From the IMG/VR virus record IMGVR_UViG_2541047751_000001: a stretch of DNA of 10,720 nucleotides; one strand, given 5' to 3'. Below are positions 492 to 10,720 of the stretch, piece after piece. The notes under the pieces were generated by a model. That model was not told where the DNA came from. It worked only from the letters and a program-made list of their open reading frames with translations, and ran no database searches. This DNA comes from a virus (Duplodnaviria > Heunggongvirae > Uroviricota > Caudoviricetes). Position numbers and translations under genes: made by a program. Each line of letters begins with the position of its first letter. Positions within the stretch are counted from its first letter, which is position 1.

Positions 492-1520
492 ATGGGATTG
501 TTTACGACCCGCCAGTTACTCGGTTATACCGAACAAAAAGTTAAATTCCGTGCGCTGTTTCTGGAGCTGTTTTTCCGCCGTACGGTGAATTTCCATACCG
601 AAGAGGTGATGCTGGACAAAATTACCGGAAAAACGCCGGTGGCGGCCTATGTCTCCCCGGTTGTTGAAGGAAAAGTGCTGCGTCATCGTGGTGGTGAAAC
701 CCGCGTGTTGCGTCCGGGCTACGTCAAGCCGAAACACGAATTTAATTACCAGCAGGCGGTTGAGCGCCTTCCTGGTGAAGATCCATCTCAACTGAATGAT
801 CCGGCTTACCGCCGTCTGCGTATCATTACCGATAACCTCAAACAGGAAGAGCACGCGATTGTCCAGGTGGAAGAAATGCAGGCGGTAAATGCTGTGTTGT
901 ATGGCAAATACACCATGGAAGGAGACCAGTTCGAGAAAATTGAGGTCGATTTTGGCAGGTCGACGAAGAATAACATCACTCAGGGTAGTGGTAAGGAGTG
1001 GTCAAAACAGGATCGTGACACGTTCGATCCTACACATGATATTGACCTCTACTGCGACCTGGCCAGCGGTCTTGTGAATATTGCCATTATGGACGGTACC
1101 GTCTGGCGTCTTCTGAATGGTTTTAAGCTGTTCCGCGAAAAACTGGATACCCGTCGCGGTTCAAATTCTCAACTCGAAACGGCAGTGAAAGATCTGGGCG
1201 CAGTGGTGTCCTTCAAGGGGTATTACGGCGATCTGGCCATTGTGGTGGCGAAAACGTCTTATGTGGCAGAGGACGGTACCGAAAAACGTTATCTGCCGGA
1301 GGGCACACTGGTCCTGGGGAATACGGCAGCAGAGGGCATTCGTTGCTATGGTGCCATTCAGGATGCGCAGGCGTTGTCCGAAGGTGTGGTGGCCTCTTCC
1401 CGTTATCCGAAACACTGGCTGACTGTGGGCGATCCGGCCCGTGAATTCACCATGACGCAGTCCGCACCGCTGATGGTGCTGCCGGACCCGGATGAGTTTG
1501 TGGTGGTACAGGTGAAATAA
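492..1520 (+). CDS. E: Major capsid protein (lambda gpE family), 342 aa
   Basis: ATG at 492 with AAGGA about 10 nt upstream. 342 aa against 341 aa for lambda gpE. Shared blocks include PGYVKPKHE, DPAYRR-RII, QVEEMQAV, KLDTRRGSNS-LETAVKDLG, GDPAREFTM-QSAPLM (recall of lambda gpE). Confidence 0.95.
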   Translation: MGLFTTRQLLGYTEQKVKFRALFLELFFRRTVNFHTEEVMLDKITGKTPVAAYVSPVVEGKVLRHRGGETRVLRPGYVKPKHEFNYQQAVERLPGEDPSQLNDPAYRRLRIITDNLKQEEHAIVQVEEMQAVNAVLYGKYTMEGDQFEKIEVDFGRSTKNNITQGSGKEWSKQDRDTFDPTHDIDLYCDLASGLVNIAIMDGTVWRLLNGFKLFREKLDTRRGSNSQLETAVKDLGAVVSFKGYYGDLAIVVAKTSYVAEDGTEKRYLPEGTLVLGNTAAEGIRCYGAIQDAQALSEGVVASSRYPKHWLTVGDPAREFTMTQSAPLMVLPDPDEFVVVQVK

Positions 1521-1528
1521 TCCGTGAG

Positions 1529-1558
1529 CGGGGGCGAAATGCCCCCGTGTCTTTTTTC
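1529..1558 (+). terminator. Intrinsic-terminator-like hairpin plus T-tract downstream of E
   Basis: GC-rich stem GGGGGC(1530-1535)/GCCCCC(1541-1546) with loop GAAAT, extendable by flanking C-G, followed by TGTCTTTTTTC (six T at 1552-1557). Sits between the E stop (1520) and the FI start (1572). Confidence 0.5.
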
Positions 1559-1571
1559 ACAGGGGGCTGAT

Positions 1572-1946
1572 ATGGCAACGAAAGAGCAAAATCTGAAACG
1601 GCTTGATGAACTGGCCCTGATTCTGGGGCGTGAGCCGGATATATCCGGGAGTGCCGCAGAGATAGCGCAGCGGGTGGCAGAATGGGAAGAGGAAATGCAG
1701 TCATCCGGCGATGATGTACAGGTTATGAATATGGATATCCGGGAGCGGGAAACCGCGGCTCATGATGTTCGTGAGGAAACATCCGGCGCGTTAACGCGCA
1801 TCAGAGTTCTGACCTGCCTCCATCTCTGTGGCGTTGATGGTGAAACGGGGGAATCCGTTGAGCTTGCGGATGTTGGTCGGGTGATTCTGATTATGTCCTC
1901 AGATGCAAAAACACACGTTGATGGTGGAATGGCTGTTTATGCGTGA
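1572..1946 (+). CDS. FI: DNA-packaging / head assembly protein FI-like, about 124 aa
   Basis: ATG at 1572 preceded by AGGGGG. The track ORF starts earlier at GTG 1524, but that start would run through the terminator hairpin and has no RBS. Position between E and FII, acidic character and size match lambda gpFI; sequence is diverged. Confidence 0.7.
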   Translation: MATKEQNLKRLDELALILGREPDISGSAAEIAQRVAEWEEEMQSSGDDVQVMNMDIRERETAAHDVREETSGALTRIRVLTCLHLCGVDGETGESVELADVGRVILIMSSDAKTHVDGGMAVYA

Positions 1947-2292
1947 TTTTCAGAATGCCTTTGATGCCGCCCTTGCCGGGGTGGACAGTACGATTGTTGA
2001 AGTGATGGGCATCAGTGCGCAGTTCACCTCCGGTGCACAGCGTGGCGGCGAGGTTCATGGCGTTTTTGACGATCCGGAGTCGCTGGGTTTTGCCAGTAGT
2101 GGGATCCGTATTGAAGGAAGTAACCCGTCATTATTTGTGCTTACGGATACGGTTTGTGCTGTACGGCGTGGTGACACGCTGACCATTAACGGCGAGATGT
2201 TCTGGGTGGACCGTGTTTCTCCGGATGACGGAGGGAGTTGTTATCTCTGGCTCAACCGGGGGCAACCACCTGCCGCCAGCCGTCGCCGCTGA
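1939..2292 (+). CDS. FII: Head-tail joining protein FII-like, about 117 aa
   Basis: ATG at 1939 overlaps the FI stop (ATGCGTGA). The C-terminal half (RRGDTLTI…FWVDRVSPDDGGSC-LWL-RG-PPA--RRR) matches lambda gpFII closely from recall; the N-terminal half is more diverged. Confidence 0.85.
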   Translation: MRDFQNAFDAALAGVDSTIVEVMGISAQFTSGAQRGGEVHGVFDDPESLGFASSGIRIEGSNPSLFVLTDTVCAVRRGDTLTINGEMFWVDRVSPDDGGSCYLWLNRGQPPAASRRR

Positions 2293-2303
2293 AAGGGGGA
2301 TGT

Positions 2304-2882
2304 ATGGCCATAAAAGGTCTTGAGCAGGCCATTGAAAACCTCAGCCGTATCAGCAAAACGGCAGTGCCTGGTGCCGCCGCAATGGCCATTAACCGCGTTG
2401 CTTCATCCGCGATATCGCAGTCGGCGTCACAGGTTGCCCGTGAGACAAAGGTACGCCGGAAACTGGTAAAGGAAAGGGCCAGGCTGAAAAGGGCCACGGT
2501 CAAAAATCCGCAGGCCAGAATCAAAGTTAACCGGGGGGATTTGCCCGTAATCAGGCTGGGTAATGCGCGGGTTGTCCTTTCGCGCCGCAGGCGTCGTAAA
2601 AAGGGGCAGCGTTCATCCCTGAAAGGTGGCGGCAGCGTGCTTGTGGTGGGTAACCGTCGTATTCCCGGCGCGTTTATTCAGCAACTGAAAAATGGCCGCT
2701 GGCATGTCATGCAGCGTGTGGCCGGGAAAAACCGTTACCCCATTGATGTGGTGAAAATTCCGATGGCGGTGCCGCTGACCACGGCGTTTAAACAGAATAT
2801 TGAGCGGATACGGCGTGAGCGTCTTCCGAAAGAGCTGGGCTATGCGCTGCAGCATCAACTGAGGATGGTAATAAAGCGATGA
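2304..2882 (+). CDS. Z: Tail completion protein Z, 192 aa
   Basis: ATG at 2304 with RBS AAAGGGGGA. Translation (MAIKGLEQAIENLSRISKTAVPGAAAMAINRVASS…) is essentially lambda gpZ from recall. Confidence 0.9.
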   Translation: MAIKGLEQAIENLSRISKTAVPGAAAMAINRVASSAISQSASQVARETKVRRKLVKERARLKRATVKNPQARIKVNRGDLPVIRLGNARVVLSRRRRRKKGQRSSLKGGGSVLVVGNRRIPGAFIQQLKNGRWHVMQRVAGKNRYPIDVVKIPMAVPLTTAFKQNIERIRRERLPKELGYALQHQLRMVIKR

Positions 2883-3274
2883 AACATACTGAATTCCGTG
2901 CAGCCGTACTGGATGCACTGGAAAAACATGACACCGGGGCGACGCTTTTTGATGGTCGCCCCGCTGTTTTTGATGAGGCGGATTTTCCGGCAGTTGCCGT
3001 TTATCTCACCGGCGCTGAATACACGGGCGAAGAGCTGGACAGCGATACCTGGCAGGCGGAGCTGCATATCGAAGTTTTCCTGCCTGCTCAGGTGCCGGAT
3101 TCAGAGCTGGATTCGTGGATGGAAAGCCGGATTTATCCGGCGATGAGCGATATCCCGGCACTGTCAGATTTGATCACCAGTATGGTGGCCAGTGGCTATG
3201 ACTACCGGCGCGACGATGATGCGGGCCTGTGGAGTTCAGCCGATCTGACTTATGTCATTACCTATGAAATGTGA
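2879..3274 (+). CDS. U: Tail terminator protein U, 131 aa
   Basis: ATGA overlap with the Z stop. The 131-aa translation ([54 protein letters not shown]…) matches lambda gpU. Confidence 0.95.
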
Positions 3275-3281
3275 GGACGCT

Positions 3282-4022
3282 ATGCCTGTACCAAATCCTG
3301 TAATGCCGGTGAAAGGGGCCGGGACCACACTGTGGGTTTATAAGGGGAACGGTGACCCTTATGCGAACCCGCTTTCAGACGTTGACTGGTCGCGTCTGGC
3401 AAAAGTTAAAGACCTGACGCCCGGCGAACTGACCGCTGAGTCCTATGACGACAGTTATCTCGATGATGAGGATGCGGACTGGACTGCGACCGGGCAGGGG
3501 CAGAAATCCGCCGGAGATACCAGCTTCACGCTGGCGTGGATGCCCGGAGAGCAGGGGCAGCAGGCGCTGCTGGCGTGGTTTAATGAAGGTGATACCCGTG
3601 CCTATAAAATCCGCTTCCCGAACGGCACGGTCGATGTGTTCCGTGGCTGGGTCAGCAGTATCGGTAAAGCGGTGACGGCGAAGGAAGTGATCACCCGCAC
3701 GGTGAAGGTCACCAATGTGGGCCGTCCGTCAATGGCAGAAGATCGCAGTACGGTGACGGCGGCAACCGGTATGACCGTGACGCCTGCCAGCTCCTCGGTG
3801 GTGAAAGGGCAGAGCACCACGCTGACCGTGGCCTTCCAGCCGGAGGGCGCAACTGACAAGAGCTTCCGTGCGGTGTCAGCGGATAAAACAAAAGCCACCG
3901 TGTCGGTCAGTGGTATGACCATCACCGTGAAAGGTGTTGCTGCAGGCAAGGTCAACATTCCGGTTGTATCCGGTAATGGTGAGTTTGCTGCGGTTGCAGA
4001 AATCACTGTCACCGACAGTTAA
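3282..4022 (+). CDS. V: Major tail tube protein V, 246 aa, with C-terminal Ig-like domain
   Basis: ATG at 3282 with RBS GAGGA. The track ORF starts at 3252, but lambda gpV begins MPVPNP and is 246 aa. The Thr/Val/Ser-rich C-terminal roughly 90 aa is typical of the Big_2-type Ig-like domain of gpV. Confidence 0.95.
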
Positions 4023-4037: not shown

Positions 4038-4460
4038 ATGTTCCTGAAAACCGAATCATTTGAACATAACGGCGTGACCGTCACGCTTTCTGAACTGTCA
4101 GCCCTGCAGCGTATTGAGCATCTCGCCCTGATGAAACAGCAGGCAGAACAGGCGGAGTCAGACAGCAACCGGCAGGTTACTGTGGAAGACGCCATCAGAA
4201 CCGGTGCTTTTGTGGTGGCGATGTCCCTGTGGCATAACCATCCGCAGAAGACAAAGCTGCCGTCCATGAATGAAGCCATTAAACAGATTGAGCAGGAAGT
4301 GCTTACCACCTGGCCCGCGGAGGCAATTTCTCATGCTGAAAACGTGGTGTACCGGCTGTCCGGTATGTATGGGTTTGTGGTGAATGATGCCCCTGACCAG
4401 GCAGAGGACTCCGGGCCTGCAGAGCCTGTTTCTGCGGGAAAGTGTTCGACGGTGAGCTGA
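4038..4460 (+). CDS. G: Tail assembly chaperone G, 140 aa
   Basis: ATG at 4038 with RBS GGAGAG. 140 aa, ends …PVSAGKCSTVS*; matches lambda gpG. Confidence 0.9.
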   Translation: MFLKTESFEHNGVTVTLSELSALQRIEHLALMKQQAEQAESDSNRQVTVEDAIRTGAFVVAMSLWHNHPQKTKLPSMNEAIKQIEQEVLTTWPAEAISHAENVVYRLSGMYGFVVNDAPDQAEDSGPAEPVSAGKCSTVS

Positions 4461-4876
4461 GTTTTGCCCTGAAACTGGCGCGAGAGATGGGGCGACCTGA
4501 CTGGCGCGCCATGCTTGCCGGGATGTCATCCACGGAGTATGCCGACTGGCACCGCTTTTACAGTACCCATTATTTTCATGATGTTCTGCTGGATATGCAC
4601 TTTTCCGGGCTGACGTACACCGTACTCAGCCTGTTTTTCAGCGATCCGGATATGCATCCGCTGGATTTCAGTTTGCTGAACCGGCGTGAGGATGACGAAG
4701 AGCCTGAAGATGATGTGCTGATGCAGAAAGCGGCAGGGCTTGCCGGAGGCGTCCGCTTTGGCCCGGACGGGAATGAAGTTATCCCCGCTTCCCCGGATAT
4801 GGCGGGCATGACGGAGGATGACGTAATGCTGATGACAGTATCAGAAGGGATCGCAGGAGGAGTCCGGTATGGCTGA
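4038..4876 (+). CDS. G-T: Tail assembly chaperone G-T fusion made by programmed -1 ribosomal frameshift near 4436-4442
   Basis: The T reading frame (track ORF 4442..4876) lies in the -1 frame relative to G and overlaps its 3' end. Slippery heptamer G GGA AAG sits at 4436..4442 in the correct X_XXY_YYZ register. Conserved G/GT arrangement of lambda-like tails. Confidence 0.8.
4436..4442 (+). promoter_or_regulatory. -1 programmed ribosomal frameshift slippery site GGGAAAG (G to G-T)
   Basis: Heptamer read directly, in frame as G_GGA_AAG, 6 codons before the G stop. The -1 frame continues open to 4876. Confidence 0.8.
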
Positions 4877-8459: not shown

Positions 8460-9203
8460 ATGACACAGACAGAATCAGCGATTCTGGCGCACGCCCGGCG
8501 ATGTGCGCCAGCGGAGTCGTGCGGCTTTGTGGTGAGAACGCCGGAGGGAGACAGATATCTTCCCTGCGTAAATATCTCCGGTGAGCCGGAGGCGTATTTC
8601 CGGATGGCTCCGGAGGACTGGCTGCAGGCAGAGATGCAGGGTGAGATTGTGGCGCTGGTCCACAGTCATCCCGGTGGTCTGCCCTGGCTGAGTGAGGCCG
8701 ACCGGCGGTTGCAGGTGCAGAGTGATTTGCCGTGGTGGCTGGTCTGCCGGGGGGCGATTCATAAATTCCGCTGTGTGCCGCATCTCACCGGGCGGCGCTT
8801 TGAGCACGGGGTGACGGACTGTTACACGCTGTTCCGGGATGCTTACCATCTGGCGGGGATTGAGATGCCGGACTTTCATCGTGAGGATGACTGGTGGCGT
8901 AACGGCCAGAATCTCTATCTTGATAATCTGGAGGCCACAGGGCTGTATCAGGTGCCGTTGTCAGCGGCGCAGCCGGGCGATGTGCTGCTGTGCTGCTTTG
9001 GTTCATCGGTGCCGAATCATGCCGCTATTTACTGTGGTGACGGCGAGCTGCTGCACCATATTCCTGAACAACTGAGCAAACGAGAGAGGTATACCGACAA
9101 ATGGCAGCGACGCACACACTCCCTCTGGCGTCACCGGGCATGGCACGCATCTGCCTTTACGGGGATTTACAACGATTTGGCCGCCGCATCGACCTTCGTG
9201 TGA
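8460..9203 (+). CDS. K: Tail tip assembly protein K, 247 aa, with JAB/MPN-like and NlpC/P60-like domains
   Basis: Longest ORF from ATG 8460; an alternative internal start is ATG 8604 (MAPEDW…). JAMM-type motif H-S-H-x7-S-x2-D at residues 68-81 (HSHPGGLPWLSEAD, nt 8661..8702). Downstream Cys (DCYTLF, residue 121) and His (NHAAIY…HH) are consistent with an NlpC/P60 papain-like fold. Confidence 0.85.
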   Translation: MTQTESAILAHARRCAPAESCGFVVRTPEGDRYLPCVNISGEPEAYFRMAPEDWLQAEMQGEIVALVHSHPGGLPWLSEADRRLQVQSDLPWWLVCRGAIHKFRCVPHLTGRRFEHGVTDCYTLFRDAYHLAGIEMPDFHREDDWWRNGQNLYLDNLEATGLYQVPLSAAQPGDVLLCCFGSSVPNHAAIYCGDGELLHHIPEQLSKRERYTDKWQRRTHSLWRHRAWHASAFTGIYNDLAAASTFV

Positions 9204-9772
9204 AAACGGGGGCCGAAGCCATCCGGGCGCTGGCCACACAGCTCCCTGCGTTTCGTCAGAAACTGAGCGACGGCTGGTATCAGGTACGGATTGCCGGGCG
9301 GGACGTCAGCACGTCCGGGTTAACGGCGCAGTTACATGAGACTCTGCCTGATGGCGCTGTGATTCATATTGTTCCCAGAGTCGCCGGGGCCAAGTCAGGT
9401 GGCGTATTCCAGATTGTCCTGGGGGCAGCCGCCATTGCCGGATCATTCTTTACCGCCGGAGCCACCCTTGCAGCATGGGGAACAGCCATTGGGGCCGGTG
9501 GTATGACCGGCATCCTGTTTTCTCTCGGTGCCAGTATGGTGCTCGGTGGTGTGGCGCAGATGCTGGCACCGAAAGCCAGAACTCCCCGTACACAGACAAC
9601 GGATAACGGCAAACAGAACACCTATTTCTCCTCACTGGATAACATGGTTGCCCAGGGCAATGTTCTGCCTGTTCTGTACGGTGAAATGCGCGTGGGGTCA
9701 CGCGTGGTTTCTCAGGAGATCAGCACGGCAGACGAAGGGGATGGTGGTCAGGTTGTGGTGATTGGTCGCTGA
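9101..9772 (+). CDS. I: Tail tip assembly protein I, 223 aa; N-terminal ubiquitin-like region, central Gly/Ala-rich hydrophobic segment
   Basis: ATG at 9101 with RBS GAGAGAGG. Overlaps the K 3' end by about 100 nt in a different frame, as in lambda. 223 aa, matching lambda gpI. Confidence 0.9.
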   Translation: MAATHTLPLASPGMARICLYGDLQRFGRRIDLRVKTGAEAIRALATQLPAFRQKLSDGWYQVRIAGRDVSTSGLTAQLHETLPDGAVIHIVPRVAGAKSGGVFQIVLGAAAIAGSFFTAGATLAAWGTAIGAGGMTGILFSLGASMVLGGVAQMLAPKARTPRTQTTDNGKQNTYFSSLDNMVAQGNVLPVLYGEMRVGSRVVSQEISTADEGDGGQVVVIGR

Positions 9773-9790
9773 TGCAAAATGTTTTATGTG

Positions 9791-9810
9791 AAACCGCCTC
9801 CGGGCGGTTT
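9791..9810 (+). other. Stem-loop in the I-J spacer (AAACCGCC-TCCG-GGCGGTTT) followed by a T-rich stretch
   Basis: 8-bp perfect stem with 4-nt loop read directly, followed by TATCGTTTAT. Could be a weak terminator/attenuator or an mRNA-stabilising hairpin ahead of J. Confidence 0.35.
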
Positions 9811-9832
9811 TATCGTTTATGGAGCATGACGA

Positions 9833-10720
9833 ATGGGTAAAGGCAGCAGTAAGGGGCATACCCCGCGCGAAGCGAAGGACAACCTGAAATCCACGCAGTT
9901 ACTGAGTGTGATCGATGCCATCAGCGAAGGACCGATAGAAGGTCCGGTGGATGGATTAAAAAGCGTGCTGCTGAACAGTACGCCGTACGCCGGTGCTGGA
10001 CAGTGAAGGGAATACCAACATCGCCGGTGTCACGGTGGTGTTCCGGGCCGGTGAGCAGGAGCAGACACCGCCGGAGGGATTTGAATCCTCCGGCTCCGAG
10101 ACGGTGCTCGGTACAGAAGTGAAATATGACACGCCGATCACCCGGACCATCACGTCTGCAAACATCGACCGTCTGCGCTTTACCTTCGGTGTGCAGGCTC
10201 TGGTGGAAACCACTTCAAAGGGGGACCGGAATCCGTCGGAAGTTCGCCTGCTGGTTCAGATACAACGTAACGGTGGCTGGGTGACGGAAAAAGACATCAC
10301 CATTAAGGGCAAAACCACCTCGCAGTATCTGGCCTCGGTGGTGGTGGATAACCTGCCGCCGCGCCCGTTTAATATCCGGATGCGCAGGATGACGCCGGAC
10401 AGCACCACAGACCAGCTGCAGAACAAAACGCTCTGGTCGTCATACACCGAAATCATCGATGTGAAACAGTGCTACCCGAACACGGCACTGGTCGGCGTGC
10501 AGGTGGACTCGGAACAGTTCGGCAGCCAGCAGGTGAGCCGTAATTATCATCTGCGCGGGCGCATTCTGCAGGTGCCGTCGAACTATAACCCGCAGAGGCG
10601 GCAATACAGCGGTATCTGGGACGGAACGTTTAAGCCAGCATACAGCAACAACATGGCCTGGTGTCTGTGGGATATGCTGACCCATCCGCGCTACGGCATG
10701 GGGAAACGTCTTGGTGCGGC
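9833..10720 (+). pseudogene. J: Tip attachment / host specificity protein J, 5' portion, interrupted by a +7 bp frameshift; continues beyond the window
   Basis: ATG at 9833 with RBS GGAG. The N-terminus MGKGSSKGHTPREAKDNLKSTQLLSVIDAISEGPIEGPVDGLKSVLLNSTP matches lambda gpJ, then the frame hits TGA at 10004..10006. From 9993 a different frame reads VLDSEGNTNIAGVTVVFRAGEQEQTPPEGFESSGSETVLGTEVKYDTPITRT… (lambda J continuation) with no stop to the window end. Confidence 0.65.
9979..9992 (+). repeat. Exact 7-bp tandem duplication TACGCCG-TACGCCG inside J
   Basis: Read directly: agTACGCCGTACGCCGgtgctg. Removing one copy gives AGT ACG CCG GTG CTG GAC (S-T-P-V-L-D), which restores a continuous J frame. 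Confidence 0.8.

Follow-up and report, generated by a model that had tools for sequence, protein, structure and literature searches.

The tail-tip gene J of a lambdoid prophage in the Escherichia coli HVH 109 (4-6977162) draft genome is interrupted by an exact tandem duplication of the heptamer TACGCCG, and as written in the DNA analysed here J is a pseudogene, i.e., a null allele. Comparison with relatives indicates that the second heptamer copy is an insertion of 7 nt, and we consider it probable that it reflects a real slippage mutation in a prophage that was already defective. The analysed DNA, in the following called the window, comprises 10,720 nt and corresponds to one complete contig, flanked by an N gap at either end, that forms part of scaffold KE699784.1 in draft assembly GCA_000457515.1.

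The tandem heptamer and the two frames of J

The two TACGCCG copies were read directly, back to back, in the context CTGAACAG TACGCCG TACGCCG GTGCTGGACAGTGA (Table 1), the two-copy version of the junction being GTACGCCGTACGCCGG. Tandem Repeats Finder reported positions 9978-9992 with a period of 7, 2.1 copies and 100% match. An extra flanking G extends the pair to G-TACGCC-G-TACGCC-G, which amounts to a microhomology of 1 nt, and the choice of which copy counts as the new one is arbitrary. Upstream, J starts with ATG 9833 behind a GGAG motif, and the phage 434 record carries an annotated ribosome_binding_site in the stretch homologous to this motif. Translation from ATG 9833 yields 57 aa (MGKG...LLNSTP followed by YAGAGQ; in full MGKGSSKGHTPREAKDNLKSTQLLSVIDAISEGPIEGPVDGLKSVLLNSTP-YAGAGQ), of which residues 1-51 are native, and this stub is deposited in GenBank as hypothetical protein G770_01335 (EQQ77595.1 / WP_021528543.1). 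The +1 frame of J contains a stop at TGA 9972-9974, after which it stays open from 9975, where it reads TVRRTPVLDSEGNT..., to the end of the window; across the break it reads ...TP VLDSEGNTNIAGVTVVF... Native codon 52 is GTG 9993, which is at the same time the sole start-like codon near the break. A gene for lambda gpJ / TipJ is made up of about 1130-1165 uninterrupted codons, whereas here the frame breaks after codon 51 and a further 214 nt of the gene are unsequenced.

Table 1. Features of the J region on the analysed strand (positions in the window).
Feature	Position	Strand	Evidence
GGAG Shine-Dalgarno motif of J, 8 nt 5' of ATG	9821..9824	+	Direct reading
Truncated J ORF: gpJ residues 1-51, YAGAGQ and premature TGA	9833..10006	+	ORF reading
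Heptamer TACGCCG, copy 1	9979..9985	+	Direct reading, HM670 alignment, Tandem Repeats Finder
Heptamer TACGCCG, copy 2; +7 insertion relative to all homologues	9986..9992	+	Sequence, alignments, Tandem Repeats Finder
Rest of J in the +1 frame (native codons 52-293), incomplete at the contig end; carries FNIII-A_GpJ	9993..10720	+	ORF reading, homology, domain search
Premature TGA in the shifted J frame	10004..10006	+	Direct reading

An earlier note on this DNA, made from the sequence alone, had described a perfect tandem duplication at 9979-9992, an N-terminal J frame of 57 codons from ATG 9833 to the premature TGA, and a remainder of J open in another frame up to the end of the window. Reading of the sequence and Tandem Repeats Finder agree with the first of these statements, the coordinates of the second are right, and the third holds as well, with the addition that the second frame is open already from 9975. 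The same note had placed the break at codon 51; J is indeed broken, but the break falls after this codon. Its expectation that removal of one heptamer brings ...NSTPVLD... into one frame was borne out, and J repaired in this way is open for all 293 codons. Finally, it had proposed an insertion of 7 nt relative to wild-type J, which is what the alignments returned: with one copy deleted, the sequence is gap-free with every relative examined and the encoded protein is 98% identical to lambda gpJ.

An exact 7+7 tandem repeat is by itself not improbable. In dinucleotide-preserving shuffles of the window such repeats occurred with a mean of 0.95, and half of the shuffles contained at least one. The exact 8-bp tandem repeat TGTGCTGC (2.1 copies) at 8981-8997 in K, which involves no insertion relative to the relatives, serves as a control and indicates that short exact tandem repeats arise by chance in the window. 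The status of 9979-9992 as a lesion rests on the alignments with homologues and not on the repeat itself. Without one heptamer, the window aligned to E. coli HM670 ungapped across 10,713 bases, with 139 mismatches and no other indel, and the repaired I-J region (1,514 nt), which matched 15,070 places across 4,508 complete E. coli genomes, was gap-free against the best of these matches. For the 101-nt junction, the best full-length matches in complete E. coli genomes reached 94/101 and differed solely by the 7 extra bases. At the protein level, 288 of the 293 N-terminal residues of repaired J are identical to lambda gpJ (PDB 8IYK, 9E7M), residues 1-293 aligning to residues 1-293 of 8IYK_J with E = 1.3e-194, and the FNIII-A_GpJ domain (PF24801) was detected with 146 bits as compared to a cutoff of 27. 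Relative to its relatives, repaired J showed 34 nucleotide differences, mostly synonymous, and 5 amino acid differences. As judged from this identity to lambda gpJ and from the mostly synonymous differences, J was functional until recently. What is found at J is thus what a slipped duplication leaves behind, namely an exact copy of the adjoining sequence that is absent from homologues and is followed by a premature stop.

The duplication is a singleton in everything searched. No junction-spanning match was present among the 8,034 places matching the 101-nt query in the 5,426 complete E. coli genomes searched, nor in 50,697 phage records, where the best match reached 96.4% and contained the gap. 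The exact junction 31-mer had no match in species-representative genome contigs or in viral contigs, and the exact 23-mer had none in metagenome contigs. The junction 20-mer matched five genome contigs, all from high-GC actinomycetes (four Kribbella and one uncultured Actinomycetota MAG) and none from Escherichia or a phage, and these matches were dismissed as chance. Exact look-ups among about 15 billion proteins placed the 57-aa stub on one contig and found neither K (247 aa) nor H (853 aa) of the window anywhere else, stub, K and H all being confined to GCA_000457515.1; V was found in this assembly and in one unrelated 2.4-kb metagenome contig that ends before J. Ten other loci encode an identical gpI, and all of them carry a single heptamer in the variants TACGCCG, TACACCG or TACGCCA. 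With at least 66 mismatches to the window over 3 kb, all ten were too divergent to serve as a near-identical sister haplotype by which the duplication might be dated.

The prophage, its relatives and the terminase stop codon

The window belongs to an icd-integrated lambdoid prophage with sitABCD, iss and an ompC-like porin gene, as in CFT073, ATCC 25922 and ABU 83972, and its host is an E. coli of the phylogroup-B2 type, here HVH 109. It is byte-identical to positions 169-10888 of the stub-bearing locus (L002; KE699784.1 positions 57359-77532), where it is flanked by N runs at 1-168 and 10889-11159, and this identity to a public record ruled out that the sequence had been planted or edited. 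J follows H-M-L-K-I in a tail operon of the lambda type, the upstream genes being intact and syntenic. All 14 other genes of the window (D, E, FI, FII, Z, U, V, G, T, H, M, L, K and I) are full-length and free of internal stops, and their differences to the relatives are mostly synonymous. Identity to lambda itself amounted to 96.2% over 80% of the window, so that the description of the tail operon as lambda-identical in the earlier note was overstated. Higher values of 98.4-98.6% were obtained with phage ev017 (98.4%) and with prophages of the CFT073/HM670 type. The likeness to lambda gpJ (PDB 8IYK, 8XCG, 9E7M) covers the N-terminal 293 residues, the FNIII-A_GpJ domain and the gene order L-K-I-J after the tape-measure gene, whereas the HVH 109 frame is broken after residue 51 by the 7 additional nucleotides, with the DNA being about 96% identical.

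Between terminase and sitABCD, tail genes included, the prophage of CFT073 matches that of HVH 109 in gene content and order, and it is 98.4% identical over the window and 99.5% identical over the 9 kb downstream. By contrast, its J (WP_000515327.1, 1160 aa) and its large terminase gene are intact. The C-terminal part of J in HVH 109 is likewise of the CFT073 type, with 98.7% nucleotide identity over J nt 1096-3483, and is gap-free and open over this range; the 795-aa piece encoded there, after the assembly gap in J, contains the domains Phage-tail_3, Ig_J, Phage_Tail_Tip and Ig_GpJ_C. The prophages of HM670, KE51 and OZ546918 gave the best whole-window matches (98.6%) and share with HVH 109 a rare terminase allele, whereas all three have a single heptamer copy and tail-gene alleles similar to those of CFT073. 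The 139 positions at which HVH 109 and HM670 differ are clustered, giving a mosaic picture. Mismatches to the closest relatives are concentrated in two stretches, with 20 at 3001-3500 and 43 at 9001-10500, and are mostly synonymous. Clustered mismatches together with unique K and H sequences may stem from natural mosaicism of lambdoid elements, or else from a consensus in which paralogous prophages of one genome are mixed.

The allele shared with these relatives is a TGG>TGA change (W>stop) in the large terminase gene, which in HVH 109 lies at L021 603-605, some 6.1 kb upstream of the first position of the window, and by which the gene is called as two pieces, ATPase and nuclease. The codon is TGG in CFT073 and TGA in HM670. 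Complete E. coli genomes contained 2,063 homologous places, and exactly this allele was present in only three records, namely HM670, KE51 and OZ546918. These genomes were finished independently and are three of the four that match the whole window best, and PGAP annotated an 'internal stop' in the terminase of HM670 and KE51. Because the identical allele occurs in three finished close relatives, the nonsense codon is real and inherited, and it marks a small clade that includes HVH 109. The earlier view that J carries the one clear lesion is accurate inside the window, where the 14 other genes are intact, but not for the prophage as a whole, given this nonsense codon upstream. On the evidence of these alleles, the HVH 109 prophage was unable to package DNA before the J lesion. 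The phage would therefore be non-viable whatever the state of J, so that nothing could be learned from testing adsorption or plaque formation. Within the clade, J is found in three states: intact in KE51, cut in HM670 by an element of the IS3 family (L001 24782-25995, with an annotated AL1L pseudoknot frameshift site) and carrying the 7-bp duplication in HVH 109. Independent J lesions thus accumulate in this clade, and relaxed selection is indicated both by the terminase TGG>TGA shared with three finished genomes and by the IS3 element in the J gene of HM670.

Recoding, assembly artefact or mutation

A functional J in two pieces, or one recoded across the break, would require either a shift of +1 (or -2) within 9975-10003, i.e., in AAC AGT ACG CCG TAC GCC GGT GCT GGA CAG TGA, or termination at TGA 10004 followed by re-initiation at GTG 9993, in which latter case two polypeptides (residues 1-51 with the 6-aa tail, and residue 52 to the end) would have to co-assemble in the tail tip. 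We regard this as very improbable, even though the ORFs have 14 nt in common (GTG 9993 ... TGA 10006) with no native residue lost, and even though the hub of lambda is naturally divided among gpL, gpI and gpJ as compared to the single pb3 of T5 (PMC10721106). Structural work puts gpJ's N-terminal region, in which the break lies, in the HDII-insertion fold of the hub; gpL completes this fold, and gpI is in contact with it (PMC10721106, PMC11101478). However, reading of 9975-10003 with its stop context revealed no shift-prone codon of the CUU-U / CCC-U / UUU-Y type, no Shine-Dalgarno-like stimulator 3-6 nt upstream and no homopolymer for transcriptional slippage. The A-rich stretch TTAAAAAGC at 9956-9964 was rejected as a shift site, as it lies upstream of TGA 9972-9974, which closes the target frame, and would favour a shift of -1, i.e., in the wrong direction. 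Furthermore, no Shine-Dalgarno or purine-rich stretch was seen before GTG 9993, and a motif scan of 9600-10300 returned no promoter-like site. What a real recoding site looks like can be seen in the same operon: the heptamer GGGAAAG of the lambda G/G-T programmed -1 frameshift is conserved in the window at 4436-4442, at the overlap of G (4038-4460) and the T frame (4442-4876). The J break does not resemble it: a slippery heptamer is lacking, a shift of +1 would be needed, and no homologue shares the break. Indeed, a two-frame arrangement of J was found in none of the 8,034 junction places, the ten gpI loci and the best matches of the 15,070 places. Moreover, the prophage is unable to package DNA, so that nothing would select for a rescue of J. 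With no slippery site, no Shine-Dalgarno motif and no conservation, programmed recoding at the break was rejected, which upholds the remark in the earlier note that the site carries neither a slippery heptamer nor a ribosome binding site and does not look like recoding. Its conclusion that full-length J is not made from this sequence is equally sustained, J being a null allele as written with no recoding or restart signal. More remote still is the thought that re-initiation at GTG 9993 gives a viable split J, extending the division among gpL, gpI and gpJ, or, as a related idea, that tail production is switched on and off by ready reversion of the duplication. What is left are exactly the two alternatives that had been named at the outset, a lesion in a cryptic prophage and an assembly indel.

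If the duplication is an assembly artefact, the strain carries one TACGCCG and the 7 bases were added while a short-read assembler was filling in or connecting sequence within a repeat-rich prophage region, e.g., through a small overlap left unmerged at a join or through a local consensus error, and J would then be intact outside the gap. This is a tangible, albeit less probable, explanation. The window is a whole contig between N runs; J is also cut by a gap of 271 N, 728 bp downstream of the duplication, which replaces 214 nt (J nt 882-1095); and the HVH 109 prophage has three N gaps within 20 kb (L021 1704-2113, 4350-6719 and 17440-17710). J-like copies number three per E. coli genome (median), and local assembly errors concentrate in such repeats. 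The lesion is present in no other collection, the unique sequences of K and H are compatible with a chimeric consensus, and no second lesion is seen in J, which fits a gene that is in fact intact. These features, i.e., a singleton in a draft with three N gaps, in a repeat region and next to unique K and H, count against a real mutation. On the other hand, the site lies 728 bp inside the contig, and the additional heptamer is the sole indel in about 20 kb aligned from KE699784.1, as no other was found in the 10.7 kb compared with HM670 and none in the 9 kb downstream of the J gap compared with CFT073; the assembly is accordingly of high quality in this area. Short-read consensus errors rarely take the form of a clean 7-bp tandem duplication in sequence that is not repetitive, and graph-based assemblers require read k-mers across such a junction, which further speaks against an artefact. 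In addition, the terminase lesion in three finished genomes makes a second real lesion expected rather than surprising. A real mutation is likewise favoured by the exactness of the adjacent copy with its 1-nt microhomology, by the defectiveness of the prophage as judged from finished genomes and by the independent J lesions in the clade. The weighting of these two readings includes a rough estimate of the rate of small indels from the assemblers concerned, for which we took the HVH genomes to be Broad Institute drafts assembled from Illumina reads with ALLPATHS-LG, an assumption on which none of the other results rests; the literature yielded nothing usable on small tandem duplications made by assemblers or on the HVH strain collection.

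Following the reading of a real mutation, which we prefer, we propose that the G-flanked TACGCCG in J was duplicated in tandem in the DNA of the strain, most likely by replication slippage. The ribosome would then read residues 1-51 of J and six wrong residues before it stops, leaving about 1100 codons unreachable in the +1 frame, and no functional tail-tip/central-fibre protein would be made. Since packaging had already been lost through the earlier terminase nonsense codon, J would have been under no selection, and the duplication would represent a further step in the neutral decay of the prophage.

Prophage decay and annotation

Frameshifted tail genes in decaying prophages are routine, as are small indels in draft assemblies, and the present case adds nothing beyond known biology. 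If the duplication is real, it exemplifies the stepwise decay of a domesticated prophage that is kept for its cargo (sitABCD for iron/manganese uptake, iss and the ompC-like porin gene); J would have been lost after the terminase, and the three J states in the clade would illustrate neutral erosion after an initial knock-out. In the case of an artefact, it would illustrate that short 'hypothetical proteins' of draft genomes, WP_021528543.1 being an example, can stem from assembly. Either way, G770_01335 should carry the label of a J pseudogene's 5' fragment instead of that of a hypothetical protein. The small added value lies in this correction and in the order of events, with the terminase being affected first and independent J lesions following.

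Apart from the J break, some further observations were made on the prophage and its relatives. The IS3 family found in the J gene of HM670 is also represented in CFT073, where one copy sits between ren and ninB. Downstream of J, a side-tail-fibre-like gene forms one ORF of 686 aa in HVH 109 (L002 13606-15666; L023 19374-21434), and in KE51 and HM670 PGAP annotated the same gene as an N-terminal 'pseudogene' fragment with an overlapping separate protein. As the pair in KE51 is in the same frame, this split appears to be a peculiarity of the annotation and not a lesion. A scan of the window against Rfam returned no RNA family at gathering score. The 60-nt spacer between I and J contains a strong GC-rich hairpin at 9788-9813 followed by a U-rich tract (RNA fold of -21.6 kcal/mol, z = -3.7); a simple terminator scan did not report this hairpin, and in the phage 434 record a terminator is annotated in the homologous stretch.
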